NCBI GenBank assembly: GCA_963766815.1
Contig: CAVYBZ010000025.1
Coordinates: forward strand, 12,883-76,882
Reading direction: 5' to 3'
Length of the DNA stretch: 64,000 nucleotides
Origin: an uncultured Alphaproteobacteria bacterium
Lineage (GTDB): Bacteria; Pseudomonadota; Alphaproteobacteria; Rhizobiales; Rhodomicrobiaceae
Shown piece by piece: positions 30,282 to 37,325 of this stretch. A program made the position numbers and the translations under genes. The first letter of the stretch is position 1, and every line of letters starts with the position of its first letter. The notes below the pieces were generated by a model. That model was given only the letters and a program-made list of their open reading frames with translations. It ran no database searches and was not told where the DNA came from.

Positions 30282-30345
30282 GGCGCGGGCTTGCCGCCGC
30301 TTGCTCAATCGCTTTTCCAAGCGCCCCGTGCTAGAACACTATACA

Positions 30346-30594
30346 ATGACAGACCTCTTGCAAAACGCCTTCGAAACCGTGCGCCGCCTGCCGCCAGAGG
30401 CGCAGGATCAGATCGCGGAAGCCATATTGGCGCTGGCCACCGGAGGGGCGGCGCCGGATCGCGCGTTGTTCCAGGTCTGCCCCGAGGTGGATGCCGAGTT
30501 TCTTGCGCGCCTCGACGAGCCGCAGCAGCCCAATGAGCGTTTACGAAAAACCATGCAGGCGTCCATTCATATCTATCTATTGAAAAGGAATAGC
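30346..30594 (+). pseudogene. Chimeric antitoxin-like remnants (small helical antitoxin-like N-terminus plus DUF1778/TacA-like C-terminal fragment)
   Basis: MTDLLQNAFETVRRLPPEAQDQIAEAILALA followed in frame by LFQVCPEVDAEFLARLDEPQQPNERLRKTMQ, which resembles the DUF1778 C-terminus; reads through into the CopG gene. Confidence 0.45.
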
Positions 30595-30870
30595 ATGGCA
30601 GGCCCCGACACCGCAGAGCTGACGGCACATGTGCCCTTGGCGCTGGCCGAGAAAATCGACCGGCTCGCGGAACGGGATGAACGCTCGCGCGCCTCGATCG
30701 TCAAGGAAGCGCTGATCGCCTGGGTCGAGCAGGAAGAAGAGCGCGACCGGCTGACCCGCGAGGCCCTGGCCGATGTGGACGCCGGGCGGTTAATCGATCA
30801 TCGGGACGTGCAATCATGGGCCGATAGCCTCGGCGCCGGGGAGCCGAAGCCGCTTCCGGCCGCCCGGTGA
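30595..30870 (+). CDS. CopG/ribbon-helix-helix antitoxin (ParD-like)
   Basis: AAAAGGAA RBS then ATG 30595; LTAHVPLALAEKIDRLAERDERSRASIVKEAL...EALADVDAGRLIDH; its TGA overlaps the toxin ATG. Confidence 0.8.
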   Translation: MAGPDTAELTAHVPLALAEKIDRLAERDERSRASIVKEALIAWVEQEEERDRLTREALADVDAGRLIDHRDVQSWADSLGAGEPKPLPAAR

Positions 30871-31123
30871 TGGATGTCCAGTGGACAAGCGAGGGCACGA
30901 TTTTCTGGCGCCGGTAAACAAGCTTGCGGCGGCGCGCGTCGCGCAATCGCTGACGGCGGCGGCGTCCAAGCTCCCCGCCAACCCTCGTATCGGCAGGAAG
31001 CTGGAGCAGTTCGAACCGCGCGAGGTTCGCCGCATCTTCGCCGGCGATTACGAAATGCGCTATGAAATCGCGGGATCGACGATCTACGTGCTCAGAATTT
31101 GGCATACGAAAGAAAATCGCTGA
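30870..31123 (+). pseudogene. RelE/ParE family toxin with a frameshifting deletion near the N-terminus
   Basis: ATG 30870 gives MDVQWTSE; the rest (HDFLAPVNK...NPRIGRKLE...EMRYEI...VLRIWHTKENR) is in another frame, and the usual helix between them appears to be missing. Confidence 0.75.
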
Positions 31124-31224
31124 GCTGCGGGCAGTCTCAGTGCAGCCGTCGCGAACCGGCGGCCGCCGTTGATTTGCCGTATCCGCCAGCATAATGTGAC
31201 TGCGACATGGCTGGGAGCGCTCGC

Positions 31225-31560
31225 ATGGACGTTGCAGCTCAAATCGCCGATCTCACGCGCCGCGTCGCCGCGCTCGAAGCGGAAGCCGAAGGGCAGCAGC
31301 GTTACAATGCGCGAATTCTCCGGATGCTTACCGAATTGCGCGACGACGTGGCTATCCTGCGCACGCATGCCGTTGGACTCGGCCAAAGGTTCGATGCGCT
31401 GGAGGCCAAGGTCGAAAGGCTGGACGCCAAGTTCGATGGGCTGGAGGCGAAGGCCGGATCGCTGGAGGCCAAGGTCTCGGCGGAGATTGGCGGCCTTCGC
31501 CGCGATCTGCCTGGCATCATCGCCGAGACCATGCGCGAGGTGCTGCGGGAACGGAAATAG
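31225..31560 (+). CDS. Small coiled-coil hypothetical protein
   Basis: GGGAG RBS before ATG 31225 (alternative start 31207); heptad repeats LEAKVERLDAKFDGLEAKAGSLEAKV. Confidence 0.65.
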   Translation: MDVAAQIADLTRRVAALEAEAEGQQRYNARILRMLTELRDDVAILRTHAVGLGQRFDALEAKVERLDAKFDGLEAKAGSLEAKVSAEIGGLRRDLPGIIAETMREVLRERK

Positions 31561-31847
31561 GCCTTTCCGCGCCATCTAGCACACCTCAATGGATACCACC
31601 CTCAGACTCCCCTCTGACTAAGTCTCTATTGGCAGGCGGGGGGCTCGTTGTAATTGATCTGGCGCCGCGGCTGAATGTTATCCGGATAGCCAGAAAAAGG
31701 CCGCATAACTTGTGCGGAATAGTGTTTTCCCTGTGGTTATCGCGCCACGTTCGTCAAAATTTGGCCATCTTCTGCAAAATCCAAGCAAAAGTGATTTTTT
31801 TGTAACAAAACTCACGCGAAATCAGACATCCTGACAAAGGTAAATAC

Positions 31848-31862
31848 GTTCAATGGTTGTCC
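31848..31862 (+). promoter_or_regulatory. Possible alphaproteobacterial LexA (SOS) box
   Basis: GTTC-N7-GTCC, one mismatch to GTTC-N7-GTTC, upstream of a DNA-repair-associated gene; one-mismatch hits are common by chance. Confidence 0.3.
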
Positions 31863-31938
31863 GTTGTGAGCTGTTAGTCCGGACAGAGTGCGGTTCACGG
31901 CTTGAGTATATCGCCGGTCCGCCTGAAGGGCAGACATT

Positions 31939-32673
31939 ATGCTTGCTACAACGCTTCAGCGTGATACATCGGCGCTTCTTCACGATGCAGGGGCTTCACG
32001 GGTCCTTATTTGCGGTAAGTCTTTTATCGCCGATCCGACAGGCGCCCTTTTTCGGCCGGCTGAGAACACGCTTATTGTCGCCGACCTGCAACTTTCGAAG
32101 TGCTCCTATCTCGAAGGGGAGGACGTGGTCCTTCCTCCCTACGATACGGCATCGGCTTTCGAGAAACTTGAGGACGCGCTCGACCGCTACGATCCTCTCC
32201 GCGTCATCGCGCTCGGCAACAGTTTTGCCGGGTTCACTTCGGACGGCCTTAGCCATCATCAGAGCGACTGGCTTCAGGATATGATGGAGGGGCGTGAGTG
32301 GTATTGGGTGGCGTCGGATCTTTGCCCGCCGCCTGACGGGATCGGTGGCACGGCCGTGCCGCAGATGATGCTCGGCGGCATCAAGTTTCGTGCGGAGCCG
32401 GTTCGCGCGCCTGTCGCCAATGAGATTGCCGGGGGCTTGCATCCGGTGGCGCAGGTCTCGCATTACGGCCACCTCGTTCGCGGGCGCTGCTTCGTCTCGA
32501 ACGGCATGCGGATGATCCTGCCGTCGCTCGGCAATTACTCCTCCGGAACCAATGTGCTAAGTTCGGCCTTCGATCCTCTTCTCGGCCAGGGCGGCTTGTT
32601 CGTATGGTTCATCTCTCAAGAGCGGGTGTCTTCGGTGGCGTCTCCCCAGCTCATGGAAGACCGCGCCGCTTAG
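31939..32673 (+). CDS. PdeM-like (ligase-associated DNA damage response) metallophosphoesterase homologue with degenerate active site
   Basis: Overall match to the PdeM pattern (ADPTGAL..P...LIVADL, LPPYDT, IALG.SF, FR.EP, LHP, R.RCF, ILPSLG.Y..G.NV), but most metal ligands are substituted. Confidence 0.75.
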   Translation: MLATTLQRDTSALLHDAGASRVLICGKSFIADPTGALFRPAENTLIVADLQLSKCSYLEGEDVVLPPYDTASAFEKLEDALDRYDPLRVIALGNSFAGFTSDGLSHHQSDWLQDMMEGREWYWVASDLCPPPDGIGGTAVPQMMLGGIKFRAEPVRAPVANEIAGGLHPVAQVSHYGHLVRGRCFVSNGMRMILPSLGNYSSGTNVLSSAFDPLLGQGGLFVWFISQERVSSVASPQLMEDRAA

Positions 32674-32704: not shown

Positions 32705-33513
32705 TTAAACGCGCCGAAAGACAATCGAGGCGCCTCCGCCGACGGCGGCGGCGATCACGACCGCCAGCACGCCATAGAGCCAAGGGTGGTCTGTCGCCGC
32801 CGAGGATAGCTGCGCCTCGATGCCGATCTTATTCAATCGAATGTGGGCGCTTGCCTGCCCCATGACCTTACCGTTTTGCAGCACAAAAAACTCGGCCCGG
32901 TAGAGGCCCGCTCCAGCAGCGGGCGGCAGGAAAACCCTCGCCCGGAACAGCCTGGCGCCAAAGAACTAAATCGCCGTCTGGCTATCTTCGATGAAAAGGC
33001 CGCTCGTCTGCTTCAATTTGATCAACGCATCTTGAAATTCCTGAGGCGCGCTGGCTGACGCCTCTGCCGCTTCTTCCGCCTTCAAAGGAAGATTTAGAAC
33101 ATCGATGCCGATCTCATAGGCCTTGCGTTCCTCTGGCGGAGCAATCCCGGCGAGCGGTTTTGTCGAGAGGGCCGCGTAGTAATTGGGCGCCCCTCGAAGG
33201 TGAGGCTTTGCGTATTGACCCACAAGCCCAATCGCCGGTTCTTCTTCCAGACCGTAACCGGCTTGATCGGGCCGCGGATCGTGACCACGACATCGAAGGG
33301 CTGATCGTTTAGCCGGCCCGGGTCGACGGACCCAAACAGGGCAATACTTGTCCCGTCGTAGCTCGGCTCGATATAGAAATGGTTCTGAGAGGCGCCCGCT
33401 TCGATCACGTCAGGTTCCGAAGCCAGCGCCTGAAACGCAAAAAGCCCGAGCAGCGGCAATATAATGGCGACGCGGACAAGGCGCGACGCATTGGAATGCC
33501 GCGCCATCATCAA
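32705..33513 (-). CDS. TIGR02186 family transmembrane protein (one frameshift at 33190-33193 and one in-frame TAG at 32966-32968; probably sequencing errors)
   Basis: Signal peptide; TIRGP...VTVWKKNRRLGLWVN; PNYYA; LFRARVFLP; C-terminal TM PWLYGVLAVVIA; directly follows a TauE gene as is usual for this family. Confidence 0.75.
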
Positions 33514-34424
33514 GCCCCAGCGCGGGTAAGGCTGAAAATCTCGGGCGGCGCGAACAGCCCCACGGTAAGGCGCAACCCCACTGACAGAACCAAAATCGCA
33601 AGCAGGAGACGCAACTGCTCGGCGCGAAGATGCTGGCCCGCCGCCGCCCCGGCCTGGGCGCCGATCACTCCACCCACCATCAAAATAAGCGCGAGCGCAA
33701 TGTCTACAGTCTGGTTGGCCGCCGCCTGCAACACGGTCGTGATCGCGCTTACAAAAATCACCTGAAACAGCGAGGTGCCAATCGCGACATTGGTCGGAAC
33801 GCGAAGGAGATAAATCAGGATCGGAACCATGACGAAGCCGCCCCCAACGCCCATCACGCCCGACATGAGCCCGACAAGCGCGCCTAGCGCTATCGCGGGC
33901 ATCGCGCTGATGTAAAGCTTCGACGCCTTGAAGCGTGTTTTGAAGGGCAGCCGATGAATCCAGTTGTGGTGAGCGGAGCGGCGCGCGGCAGGCTGGCCCT
34001 GGCGCACCTTACGAAGCGCGCGAATGCTTTCCACAAACATCATGCCGCCCACGGCGCTCATGAAAACGACGTAGAGGAGGGCTATGGACAGGTCGATCTG
34101 CCCGGTCTGGCGCAAATATTTCACAATCTGAACGCCGATAAGCGCGCCAAACGCGCCTCCAGCGAGAAGATACATGCCGAGCTTGACGTCCACATTTTTG
34201 CGGCGGTACTGAGCGATCGTGCCCGTGATCGATGAAGCGATCAGCGGATTAGCCCCTGTGGCGACAGCGACCGCGCTCGGCACGCCGGCAAAGATCAACA
34301 TGGGCGTCATAAGAAAACCGCCGCCGACGCCGAACATACCTGAGAGGAACCCTACCGCGCCGCCAAGCGCGAGCATCACCAGCGCATTCACCGGCAGTTC
34401 GGCAATTGGCAAATAAACCAGCAT
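33510..34424 (-). CDS. Sulfite exporter TauE/SafE family protein
   Basis: MLVYLPIAEL...GFLSGMFGVGGGFLMTP; second repeat GVMGVGGGFVMVP...AIGTSLFQ. Confidence 0.9.
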   Translation of the reverse strand: MLVYLPIAELPVNALVMLALGGAVGFLSGMFGVGGGFLMTPMLIFAGVPSAVAVATGANPLIASSITGTIAQYRRKNVDVKLGMYLLAGGAFGALIGVQIVKYLRQTGQIDLSIALLYVVFMSAVGGMMFVESIRALRKVRQGQPAARRSAHHNWIHRLPFKTRFKASKLYISAMPAIALGALVGLMSGVMGVGGGFVMVPILIYLLRVPTNVAIGTSLFQVIFVSAITTVLQAAANQTVDIALALILMVGGVIGAQAGAAAGQHLRAEQLRLLLAILVLSVGLRLTVGLFAPPEIFSLTRAGA

Positions 34425-34538
34425 GGCTGCTGTCAACCAAACGATGCGAGGATTTGGGGTGGATTGCGTTTGTTTTTTGCGCGGTTGTAGCCTAAAGCGA
34501 AACTGGGGTCACGTGAAAACGGTCTTGGGCGCAAATCC

Positions 34539-34623
34539 TGAAGCACATCGGGAAAAGCGCGGGAGCGGTTTTCCGGTAAAGACGCACGATAAAACAGAAA
34601 GCTGGCCCCGCCCTGATTCCATC
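34539..34623. repeat. RIME/BRU-RS-like intergenic palindromic element, family A
   Basis: GGGAAAAGCGCGGGAGCGGTTTTCCGGTAAAGACGCACGA; similar to copies at 40119-40422, 42467-42564 and 47002-47035. Confidence 0.6.
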
Positions 34624-35007
34624 GGCGGATAAGCCAAGTTTGCGGCCGCCACGAGTGCTTGCGCTTCCCTTTGCGCTTCGAAGCGGATGGGGCAAGAGAG
34701 GAGTGCGGCGAGTTTTCGGAGCTGGAACGCCTGCGGATTAGCAATCGTGGCCGCCAAAGAGGAAGCCAGCCCGGCCTAGGCCTTGCACTATAAGACCGGA
34801 CTACGCGCGCGTGTTCCTTCTCTTTCGCGCCAGGGAAGCCGTTGCCGGGTTATAGATTAGGTCCGTTGATATATCGCGTCGCAGCGCCACGTTTGCGGAT
34901 AGGAGGGGCCCCGACGCCGGTTTCTTTCCCCACTTCGCATCCGCAAGCGAATATGGTGCGGTGAAATCCTTCGTAGGCGAGGGCATGCTATACTGCTAAG
35001 CGCCGGC

Positions 35008-37170
35008 TTAACCGCGAGCGTCGCTGGCGCCGGCCAGGCGAGGCAGTTGCTCCACAGTTGGACGCCAGGCGCCGGCCTGTTCATCCGCGGCCTGCGTCTC
35101 AGCCTCGGGCAGCCCGTGCTTGAGCCGCTCCGCGTGCCGCGTGGCTTCCTTATCCCCTGCCAATGAAGCCACCTGATACCAGAAGTAGGCTTTCCCGCTG
35201 TTCTGCTGCACGCCAAGGCCGCGCTCGTAGAGTAGGGCGAGGTTGAATTGGCTGTCGGTCAAGCCGGCCGTTGCAGCGGTCGTGAACCAGCCCGCAGCCT
35301 CCTGGTAGTCCTGCGGCGTCTCTTGGGTGGAGAGCAGAACGCCGAGATTATGCATCGCCCGGATATGTCCTGCGCTTGCAGCTTTCCGATACAGGTCCCG
35401 CGCCTGGTTTTCATCTTTCGGAACGCCGGCGCCTCGCTCATACAACGAAGCCAGAATGAACTGCGATTCTGTGTGGCCCTGATCGGCCGCCCTCGTCAGC
35501 CAGCGCGCCGCGGTTGCTGGGTCGCCTTGCGGCGTGCCGTCATTCAGGAAACGGGCGCCAATGCGAAACTGCGCTTCCCGGTCGCCCCGGCTGGCGGCGC
35601 TCGTCAGCATCTGCAGGTCCTCGCCAGAATCCGGCTGAAGCCTGGACGGCGAAGCATGGTTTTGATCGGCCGCGGTGAAGAGCGCGGGACCTCCTTTAGG
35701 CTCTGTGGTCAAGAGCCTCTCAGGTCCATCGTCCTCGATCCTCCAATTCCGCGGTGCGCTGCCCTCCGGCGAAACCCTCGCTGCCTGCACATCCGGCAGC
35801 ACGCTCAAGTGGAATGGGGGGAGCTCAGCCTTTGAATGAAGGTAGTAGAGCGCGGCGCTGGCAATCAGAAGGACGACAGCGACAATTCCGAGCCCAAAGA
35901 GGGGCAGAGCCTTATCTTCCTCGCGAAACAGCGGCCCAGCCAAGAAGGATGGGGGCGATGGACGTTGGGTCTGAGCGGCTTCTTGTTCCTGTTTCAAGGA
36001 GCCCGAGCTCCTGGAAGTAAGCCGTTGGCCCGCTTCCTCCAGCGCCCTGATCAGATTTGGGTCGTGGGGCGGCGGTGTGCGGAGCGTAATCGTGTCGAGC
36101 TGCGGCTTTCGCGCGGGCGCAGACCCGAAATCCGCGTCCGGCCTGGAGTAGGCGGGCGCGCCGGCCGCTATCGGCATATGAACTCCGGCACGTTTCTTGG
36201 GAGCAGCGGCGCTGGCCCGGTCTGCGCTGCCCCTTTCGAGGAAAATGCGCAAAGTTTCGTGAACGCGCTCAAGCGCCGCAGTGGTGCGTTCGCTGCTTTC
36301 GCGGGAAAGAACGTTGAGTGCGCGAAGCTCGCTCTCCACGCGGCCGAGGCTGGAACTCTCGGCGGACTGATGCAGGGCGGCGGCGATATGCTCGGCGGTG
36401 ACTGCGGCCGCGCGTGAGGCCGCGACGACAACGGTTTGCCCGAGTTCCCTCACTGTGTGGCGCGCTGCGGTCTCGAAACCGGCCCGGGCCTCGCCGGCGC
36501 GCTCCGTGGCGGCAAGAATTTCCTTGGCCGCGCGCGCGATCCGGCTGGCGTCGGTTGAGCTTTGCTCGCGCGTAACTTCGAGGGAGCGCGATAGCTCTGC
36601 GAGTTGGATTTCCACTGCCGCCATGGTTCTCTCGCCGGGCATGACCGCCGATAGTTTGTCGACGCGGCCGATGATTTCCGCCAGCTTTGCGTTGATGGAT
36701 AAGATCTCGCCTTTGTCAGCCTCCTGGCGGGTGAGAAGTCCCTTCAACTCCAAGAATCTCTCTTCGAACCAGGCGAGGTCGCCTCCCCGGCGCGGCTCCG
36801 GGGAGGAAGGCTGCGATTGATGGGCTGGAGCTTCTCTCGCCGGGTCCTTAAAGACTTCGGTATAATGAAGAGGGGGGCTGAATTCATTCAGGCGCGCGGA
36901 CAAAGCGTCGAGGGGAGGAAAACCTTTCGATTTCGGGCTCTTGGCGCGATCCAGATAAGCATAAAGCTGAGCATCCGCATCTGTCTCGCTGTCCAATGCC
37001 GATAATGGCGGATCCGGGGACGGGAAGGGCTGAGGCATTTGCGGAAGGGGGGGAATCTCGGGCACGCCGTCGAGCGCGCGCTCAAGCGGACTCCGCTGCT
37101 CGCGGGCGCCGTCGCCATTAAGGTCGCCGCTGATCAAGCGCCCTGTTTTCACGTTACTCAGTCCCGCCAT
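35008..37170 (-). CDS. PodJ-like polarity protein: coiled-coil region, single TM helix, Sel1-like repeats
   Basis: TM LPLFGLGIVAVVLLIASAALYYL; Sel1 repeats (AQFRIGARFL, SQFILASLYERG, AMHNLGVLL, SQFNLALLYERG); adjacent to TauE/TIGR02186 as for podJ in other Rhizobiales; start uncertain (37170 or 37227). Confidence 0.7.
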   Translation of the reverse strand: MAGLSNVKTGRLISGDLNGDGAREQRSPLERALDGVPEIPPLPQMPQPFPSPDPPLSALDSETDADAQLYAYLDRAKSPKSKGFPPLDALSARLNEFSPPLHYTEVFKDPAREAPAHQSQPSSPEPRRGGDLAWFEERFLELKGLLTRQEADKGEILSINAKLAEIIGRVDKLSAVMPGERTMAAVEIQLAELSRSLEVTREQSSTDASRIARAAKEILAATERAGEARAGFETAARHTVRELGQTVVVAASRAAAVTAEHIAAALHQSAESSSLGRVESELRALNVLSRESSERTTAALERVHETLRIFLERGSADRASAAAPKKRAGVHMPIAAGAPAYSRPDADFGSAPARKPQLDTITLRTPPPHDPNLIRALEEAGQRLTSRSSGSLKQEQEAAQTQRPSPPSFLAGPLFREEDKALPLFGLGIVAVVLLIASAALYYLHSKAELPPFHLSVLPDVQAARVSPEGSAPRNWRIEDDGPERLLTTEPKGGPALFTAADQNHASPSRLQPDSGEDLQMLTSAASRGDREAQFRIGARFLNDGTPQGDPATAARWLTRAADQGHTESQFILASLYERGAGVPKDENQARDLYRKAASAGHIRAMHNLGVLLSTQETPQDYQEAAGWFTTAATAGLTDSQFNLALLYERGLGVQQNSGKAYFWYQVASLAGDKEATRHAERLKHGLPEAETQAADEQAGAWRPTVEQLPRLAGASDARG

Positions 37171-37325
37171 ATCAATTGAAGCGCGCCGCCGTTCCGGGGG
37201 TCGAACTTTCCCGGACAACCGGCACACAGGGTGTTCAAGGGCCTATGCGGTTGTTATCTTTGCCTTGTATGTGCAAACATGACGTAAACAGCGGGTAAAA
37301 TTCCTATCTTTTTTTAGGGTCCTCG

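Follow-up and report, generated by a model that had tools for sequence, protein, structure and literature searches.

A PdeM-like gene with a degenerate active site

We analysed a stretch of 64,000 nt of DNA (the window) from a draft Rhodomicrobiaceae genome (38 contigs, 91% complete), focusing on the open reading frame (ORF) at 31939..32673 on the plus strand, which encodes a relative of PdeM/MPE with a degenerate active site and is here called pseudo-PdeM. PdeM/MPE, which belongs to the Lhr-Core-MPE(-Exo-Lig) cluster, is a Mn-dependent endonuclease of single-stranded DNA (ssDNA); this repair nuclease has been characterised only recently, and what it does biologically is still unclear. The ORF is complete, with 244 aa plus a stop, as the first-pass annotation of this DNA had claimed, and its product serves as the reference protein throughout. 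The coding sequence and the remnants of its five metallophosphoesterase motifs are as follows.

31939..32673, plus strand: pseudo-PdeM coding sequence (ORF call, TIGR04123 profile, AlphaFold2 model with Foldseek search, omega from a codon model)
32080..32094, plus strand: motif I remnant ADLQL (aa 48-52), with D49 (MPE D33) kept and Q51 in place of the ligand His (MPE H35)
32212..32232, plus strand: motif II remnant LGNSFAG (aa 92-98), with N94 in place of the metal-bridging Asp (D78) and A97 in place of His81
32305..32328, plus strand: motif III remnant WVASDLCP (aa 123-130), replacing W.W.SGNHDP, with Asn112 (Mn2 ligand) and His113 (general acid) lost
32386..32400, plus strand: motif IV remnant FRAEP (aa 150-154), with A152 in place of the Mn2 ligand His
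32428..32445, plus strand: motif V remnant AGGLHP (aa 164-169), with G166 in place of the first His of GHxH and H168 (Mn1 ligand) invariant

The sole family match of the window protein was NCBIfam TIGR04123 (PdeM), at 119.2 bits (E 1.5e-34), which is below the curated cut-off of 150 bits for this hypothetical equivalog. The Pfam Metallophos models (PF00149 and PF12850) matched neither the window protein nor the proteins P0021 and P0111; in the same test, PF00149 did detect canonical PdeMs. The closest solved structure by sequence was that of Pseudomonas putida MPE (6NVO/6NVP, E 4.5e-4). The PdeM-specific non-catalytic motifs LPPYD, W.W and GRCF are retained, and the surviving PdeM-specific residues are W121/W123, R151, E162, H168-P169, C184-F185, R191, P195 and G198.

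An AlphaFold2 model built from an alignment of 104 sequences had a mean predicted local distance difference test score (pLDDT) of 76 and a predicted template-modelling score (pTM) of 0.81, with only moderate confidence near residues 50-70, 155-180 and 200-210, and it has the MPE-type beta-sandwich fold without a capping domain. The top Foldseek match of the model was MPE 6NVP (E 1.5e-11, template-modelling score 0.79); 6NVP and 6NVO were the best matches in the Protein Data Bank, and everything else had E > 0.01, including Vps29 as a weak match at rank 5 (E 0.057). The window protein is predicted on this model to retain the MPE fold, and both the profile score and the fold match to P. putida MPE agree with the PdeM-likeness proposed at first pass.

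In MPE, Mn1 is coordinated by Asp33, His35, Asp78 and His158, and Mn2 by Asp78, Asn112 and two further histidines (PMC7826289). The general acid His113 and His81 are both required for DNA cleavage, and the single mutation D78A eliminates both activities of the enzyme (PMC7826289). We aligned the window protein to P. putida MPE (6NVO) and to the canonical PdeM of the same genome, and compared nine positions: D33, H35, D78, H81, N112, H113, the motif-IV His and the two His of GHxH. These read D, Q, N, A, (S/D or gap), (D/L or gap), A, G and H in the window protein, against DHDHNHHHH in canonical PdeM. Five of the seven metal ligands are substituted, D49 and H168 alone remaining, and both nuclease-essential histidines (His81 and His113) are absent, the equivalent of His113 being D127/L128 or a gap according to the alignment. 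All five motif strings quoted in the first-pass annotation were found at their places in the translation, and its claim that ligands had been substituted in the PdeM motifs was confirmed by these alignments. The substitutions suggest that two-metal phosphodiester hydrolysis has been lost in the window protein.

Conservation and selection in the Rhodomicrobiaceae

A homologue search returned 355 relatives, and the best 120 of these, several of them named Rhodomicrobium, are 61-100% identical to the window protein and include Rvan_0173 of R. vannielii ATCC 17100. Among species-representative genomes, a scan found 50 loci, every one in a Rhodomicrobiaceae-type genome. The active site is degenerate in 68 of the 68 translated family loci, and the same degenerate pattern occurs in at least 50 species-level genomes, among them the complete isolate R. 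vannielii ATCC 17100. The comparison of ligands among orthologues suggested at first pass thus excludes strain-specific decay.

Two subclades were distinguished. Subclade A, to which the window protein belongs, has members at least 67% identical to it and the signature D-[QKRHN]-[ND]-A-x-[DE]-A-G-H, and subclade B (57-67% identical to the window protein) has the signature D-H-D-C-P-[DE]-Y-R-H. Every member of the pseudo clade lacks the entire Mn2 site, as well as His81 and the general-acid His. Subclade B keeps the four Mn1 ligands; in subclade A, two of these four are additionally changed (H to Q and D to N). At the position equivalent to H35, subclade B has H and subclade A any of Q, K, R, H and N; this free drift in subclade A argues against a functional metal site there. 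The motif GNHD(P), which is 99-100% conserved in 91 canonical representatives, is absent from the pseudo clade, in which the commonest residue at the His113 position is D/E. An acidic residue there, together with the loss of metal, should disfavour phosphodiester binding.

Selection was estimated as omega (dN/dS) with the codon model GY+F3X4+G4 in IQ-TREE. The values were 0.084 for subclade A, 0.041 for subclade B and 0.116 for the canonical pdeM of the family, so the pseudo-PdeM gene is under stronger purifying selection than canonical pdeM (0.04-0.08 vs 0.12). Identity to the respective R. vannielii protein is 79% for pseudo-PdeM and 69% for canonical PdeM. The first-pass annotation had judged that the gene did not look like random decay and had proposed dN/dS as a check; the shared degeneracy of the orthologues, their intact frames and these omega values all bear this out. 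Within the pseudo clade there is almost no variation in two surface helices (aa 72-88 and aa 106-119) or in the C-terminal segment, a comparison that is biased because the pseudo clade is narrower than the canonical set. This near-invariance fits what would be expected of a fixed interaction surface.

The pseudo type was detected in 59 of 61 sampled Rhodomicrobiaceae genomes and canonical pdeM in 48 of 61, one of these 48 copies having two in-frame stops and three being split across frames; the gene absences are provisional because many of the sampled genomes are metagenome-assembled genomes (MAGs). The broken canonical copies belong to G349, G320, G322 and G309, and the canonical gene was not found in 13 of the 61, MAG errors being possible. 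The degenerate copy is intact in each genome where it was found. As is characteristic of a pseudoenzyme, the catalytic residues are gone and the gene is conserved across species under purifying selection.

Subclade B proteins score 154-156 bits on TIGR04123, over the 150-bit cut-off. The members found above it by the profile are listed here as genome, contig and coordinates.

G304:C9:55389-55976: subclade B member
G306:C11:81532-82086: subclade B member
G308:C10:24340-24900: subclade B member
G310:C17:244730-245284: subclade B member

This represents an annotation hazard, as automatic annotation would label such proteins "DNA damage response endonuclease PdeM" although they have neither a Mn2 site nor either catalytic His. 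Repair-pathway inventories of these bacteria could therefore be wrong.

Chromosomal position, origin and upstream region

Downstream of pseudo-PdeM and convergent with it lies a trio of genes on the minus strand (32708..37227), which is likewise found downstream of orthologues.

32708-33513, minus strand: Alph_Pro_TM gene (Pfam; apparent frameshift)
33510-34436, minus strand: TauE gene (Pfam)
35008-37227, minus strand: Sel1-repeat protein gene (Pfam)

The Alph_Pro_TM gene is split over two frames near 33169-33193 relative to the intact R. vannielii orthologue, by either a frameshift or an assembly indel. The synteny was compared in 13 other Hyphomicrobiales genomes, one per family. Lhr followed by PdeM is convergent with the Alph_Pro_TM, TauE and Sel1 genes in 9 of the 13, and partially so in 3 more; Exo and Lig lie near Lhr, and divergent from it, in four of these genomes within the stretch retrieved. 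Pseudo-PdeM therefore stands at the ancestral Hyphomicrobiales pdeM locus, which makes it the positional orthologue of the nuclease coupled to Lhr. The arrangement in which Lig-Exo diverges from Lhr-PdeM, itself convergent with Alph_Pro_TM-TauE-Sel1, was wholly or partly present in 12 of the 13 genomes (L141, L143, L147-L156) and is a useful synteny anchor for the repair cluster.

The window genome has the whole canonical repair set in dispersed form, with canonical pdeM on contig C27 (198 bits), ligase on C32 and, on C24, Lhr-core paired divergently with Exo. The canonical pdeM adjoins ispE in an unrelated context and belongs to a different PdeM lineage. The window protein is 32% identical to the canonical PdeM of its own genome and 36-43% identical to other Hyphomicrobiales canonical PdeMs. 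In the tree, the pseudo clade is monophyletic (support 100) and nests (support 99) with two other degenerate proteins and the canonical PdeM encoded at the syntenic position in G004, and the canonical copies of the family lie beyond a split with support 98. The approximately unbiased (AU) test rejected a clade of pseudo and family-canonical proteins (log-likelihood difference 138, p 0.00085), a grouping named only after the tree was seen. A recent in-family duplication of canonical pdeM was ruled out by the tree together with this test. The gene had been called a paralogue at first pass, and a search for a canonical pdeM elsewhere in the genome had been proposed: the second, canonical gene is indeed present, but synteny, the tree and the AU test indicate that pseudo-PdeM is not a young paralogue. 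The stem branch of the pseudo clade is long (0.51) and its internal branches are short, which fits a burst of change followed by constraint.

No ligase, Lhr or exonuclease gene neighbours pseudo-PdeM, either in the window or at the orthologous loci. The first-pass annotation was right about these missing neighbours, although the observation is not discriminating here, because the canonical pdeM of the genome is also dispersed and lacks them too. Degenerate PdeM-like genes were also found outside the pseudo clade, in two other Hyphomicrobiales families, as a single copy each in G049 (L144:5466-6356, signature DHDYHHYYR) and G069 (L145:5432-6190, signature DHGKEKHFN), both genomes without Lhr-core. 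The G049 copy occupies the ancestral locus, where an MCP gene stands in place of Lhr, and the G069 copy is at another location. The search of representatives showed many further degenerate PdeM homologues (e.g., P0127-P0143). As judged from gene content and alignments, loss of Lhr coupling accompanies active-site degeneration in at least the Rhodomicrobiaceae, G049 and G069 lineages.

The upstream context of the gene is variable, with a defence/accessory island in the window and other genes in relatives. Just upstream in the window are an RHH/TacA-like antitoxin gene and a ParE-family toxin gene (80 aa) at 30343-31123, then a gene for a 117-aa coiled-coil protein (DUF7310-like) at 31207-31560. 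A hairpin at 31701-31717, resembling a bidirectional terminator, lies between this island and the pseudo-PdeM promoter region. As the downstream trio is older than the degeneration and the upstream context is variable, neither points to a partner; the trio serves as a synteny anchor. The non-coding region 31791-31930 is strongly conserved upstream of the gene at 47 orthologous loci, and the following elements were recognised in it.

31791..31825, plus strand: promoter/operator-like element GTGATTTTTTTGTAAC-N12-AAATCAG (ortholog alignments)
31848..31886, plus strand: two SOS-box-like strings, GTTCAATGGTTGTCC (31848-31862) and CTGTTAGTCCGGACAG (31871-31886), judged non-functional
31858..31930, plus strand: conserved 5' leader, two hairpins (alignments, pairing comparison)

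The promoter/operator-like element is common to both subclades as TTTT(T/C)GTAAC-N~12-15-GAATCAG. A regulon search found the composite motif once in the genome, and the promoter scan of the upstream region gave no match to the sigma-70 consensus. In the leader, which is about 110 nt long, hairpin 1 is formed by TGTCCG...CGGACA (31858-31885), and GGCTTGAGT (31899-31907), which is invariant in subclade A, lies within a GGC...GCC hairpin; a Shine-Dalgarno sequence, GAAGGG, follows at 31925-31930. The stems differ between subclades (GUCCG/CGGAC vs GCCYGC/GCGGGC) with pairing kept, giving modest covariation support. The leader matched no Rfam family, even at E <= 10. The possibility that it is a relic of the 3' end of Lhr was also considered and rejected, as tblastn gave nothing significant.

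Interpretation and comparison with known systems

From all these comparative results and the predicted structure, we propose, with a probability of roughly 0.68, that the pseudo-PdeM product, which descends from the Lhr-coupled nuclease PdeM/MPE, is now a pseudoenzyme that binds or regulates without catalysis and is independent of Lhr in its role. A plausible model would start from an ancestral Lhr-coupled PdeM/MPE at this locus, from which Lhr was then lost. Loss of the metal centre and of the acid catalyst would have ended two-metal phosphodiester hydrolysis, and the MPE fold may then have been recruited to a non-catalytic, Lhr-independent function. A protein partner or a ligand would most probably be bound by the newly fixed surface helices and by the face that once held the active site and has been remodelled. 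The gene would be transcribed alone from its conserved dedicated promoter with a structured leader, outside the SOS regulon.

Of the suggestions made at first pass, a catalytically dead but functional protein is still the best reading, given a degenerate site that is shared by orthologues under strong purifying selection. We infer a role as scaffold or regulator. Binding of nucleic-acid ends is mildly disfavoured, because the phosphate-contacting metal and general-acid positions are lost, the His113 position is mostly acidic, and the gene outlasts its repair partners.

Several observations weigh against this interpretation. D49 and H168 are invariant among orthologues, and subclade B retains the complete Mn1 tetrad (D, H, D, H), so that a one-metal site, and perhaps some chemistry, may persist. 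No conserved operon partner among the orthologous loci indicates a binding target. All 68 pseudo proteins of the family are acidic (pI 4.5-5.9), which is only suggestive, as some canonical PdeMs are just as acidic (pI 5.1-5.4), so charge by itself is weak evidence against DNA binding. The post hoc grouping in the AU test, the MAG-based absences and the moderately confident parts of the model have been indicated above.

The protein might still be an enzyme, with a mononuclear or rebuilt site (D49, N/D94, D/E127, H168) acting on a different, probably small-molecule, phosphoester. The two invariant ligands are in keeping with this, as are the four Mn1 ligands held by subclade B at an omega of 0.04; the changes H to Q and D to N are conservative and near-isosteric, and metallophosphoesterases are noted for substrate promiscuity (Matange et al., 2015, as cited in PMC7826289). 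However, the three Mn2-specific ligands, His113 and His81 are absent in every member, and the His35 position in subclade A and the motif III and IV positions vary widely, unlike those of active sites. In MPE, moreover, the D78A change alone is sufficient to eliminate activity (PMC7826289). We consider an altered enzyme unlikely.

A non-catalytic accessory still serving Lhr/ligase repair, as a sensor of ssDNA or DNA ends or as a partner or regulator of Lhr or canonical PdeM, would be consistent with descent from an Lhr-coupled nuclease and with the retained PdeM-specific non-catalytic motifs. Most genomes of the family, the window genome included, also hold Lhr-core, Exo, ligase and canonical PdeM. 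Against this, G304 (98% complete) and G308 (93%) keep the pseudo gene without Lhr-core, ligase, exonuclease or canonical PdeM, and G306, G310 and G347 keep it along with ligase and Exo, with no Lhr-core above the cut-off and no canonical PdeM. A role that does not depend on the repair set is therefore indicated. In the family the gene never adjoins repair genes, its product has lost the positions that contact phosphate, and most members carry an acidic residue instead of His113. A continuing repair function accordingly seems rather improbable. In G306 (C11:654334-656865) and G347 (C11:8641-11169), a long Lhr-type ORF of about 1460-1480 aa is present instead of the ligase-associated Lhr-core; its TIGR04121 score of ~430-450 bits points to full-length Lhr and not to Lhr-core.

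Regulation by LexA, raised at first pass as a possible SOS box, is very improbable. Two box-like strings do lie upstream, GTTC-N7-GTCC at 31848-31862 and the Escherichia coli-type CTGT-N8-ACAG at 31871-31886, but neither behaves as a LexA site. An alphaproteobacterial site was taken to be a conserved direct repeat, GAAC-N7-GAAC or GTTC-N7-GTTC, in the promoter, and an exact GAAC-N7-GAAC stands upstream of the genome's own lexA. GTTCAATGGTTGTCC has a core mismatch, its form occurs 105 times genome-wide, and orthologues do not conserve its GTTC half; CTGTTAGTCCGGACAG is present in 1 of 48 orthologous leaders, is not found at lexA or recA, and overlaps the conserved hairpin arm.

A decaying pseudogene, strain-specific substitutions or sequencing errors can be dismissed almost completely, for although the genome is a 38-contig draft at 91% completeness and the neighbouring Alph_Pro_TM gene has an apparent frameshift, the frame is intact in all listed orthologues and the same pattern recurs across the species-level genomes at low omega.

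As a bacterial pseudoenzyme the protein is well supported, and its evolutionary origin is clear. It would be a clean example of how such proteins arise, with Lhr lost from the locus, a canonical copy in most genomes, a burst of change and then tight constraint. A strongly selected, family-wide derivative without an active site points to a second use of the MPE fold, and it offers a natural separation-of-function variant for the study of what MPE-fold proteins bind. More tentatively, and less probably than not, PdeM/MPE freed from Lhr might repeatedly become a metal-poor, non-catalytic, Lhr-independent protein, which in the Rhodomicrobiaceae would be more indispensable than the nuclease and would form a new functional class of bacterial pseudoenzymes with a metallophosphoesterase fold and its own promoter and structured leader. 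This indispensability would rest on the presence of the dead copy in 59 of 61 genomes, as against a canonical gene that is missing or broken in about 17. A literature search found no paper on a degenerate PdeM, many subscription-journal papers lying outside its coverage.

Among known systems, pseudo-PdeM is closest to P. putida MPE/PdeM (TIGR04123; 6NVO, 6NVP), with which it shares lineage, fold, the motifs LPPYD, W.W and GRCF, and the chromosomal position of the Lhr-coupled pdeM. Unlike MPE/PdeM, the window protein lacks five ligands, His113 and His81, scores 119 vs 150 bits, has no adjacent Lhr and belongs to a uniformly acidic clade that persists in genomes without the entire repair set. 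The proteins of G049 and G069 and P0127-P0143 are similar in being PdeM homologues with several ligand substitutions, but they are uncharacterised, show other substitution patterns and are only 31-50% identical.

Outside the PdeM family, Aravind and Koonin are said to have described in 1998 that the B-subunits of eukaryotic replicative DNA polymerases carry an inactivated calcineurin-like phosphoesterase domain. These belong to another clade and always act within a polymerase holoenzyme, an association not seen for pseudo-PdeM; the likeness is that of a nuclease-type phosphoesterase domain without metal ligands, retained in DNA metabolism as a subunit with a structural or interaction role. VPS29 is a scaffolding protein with a metallophosphoesterase fold (PMC5748213). 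This retromer subunit is eukaryotic, lies in another superfamily clade and works with known partners (VPS35 and others); its calcineurin-like phosphoesterase fold serves as a scaffold for binding proteins, and in this it provides a functional analogy, and no more than that, for the role proposed here.

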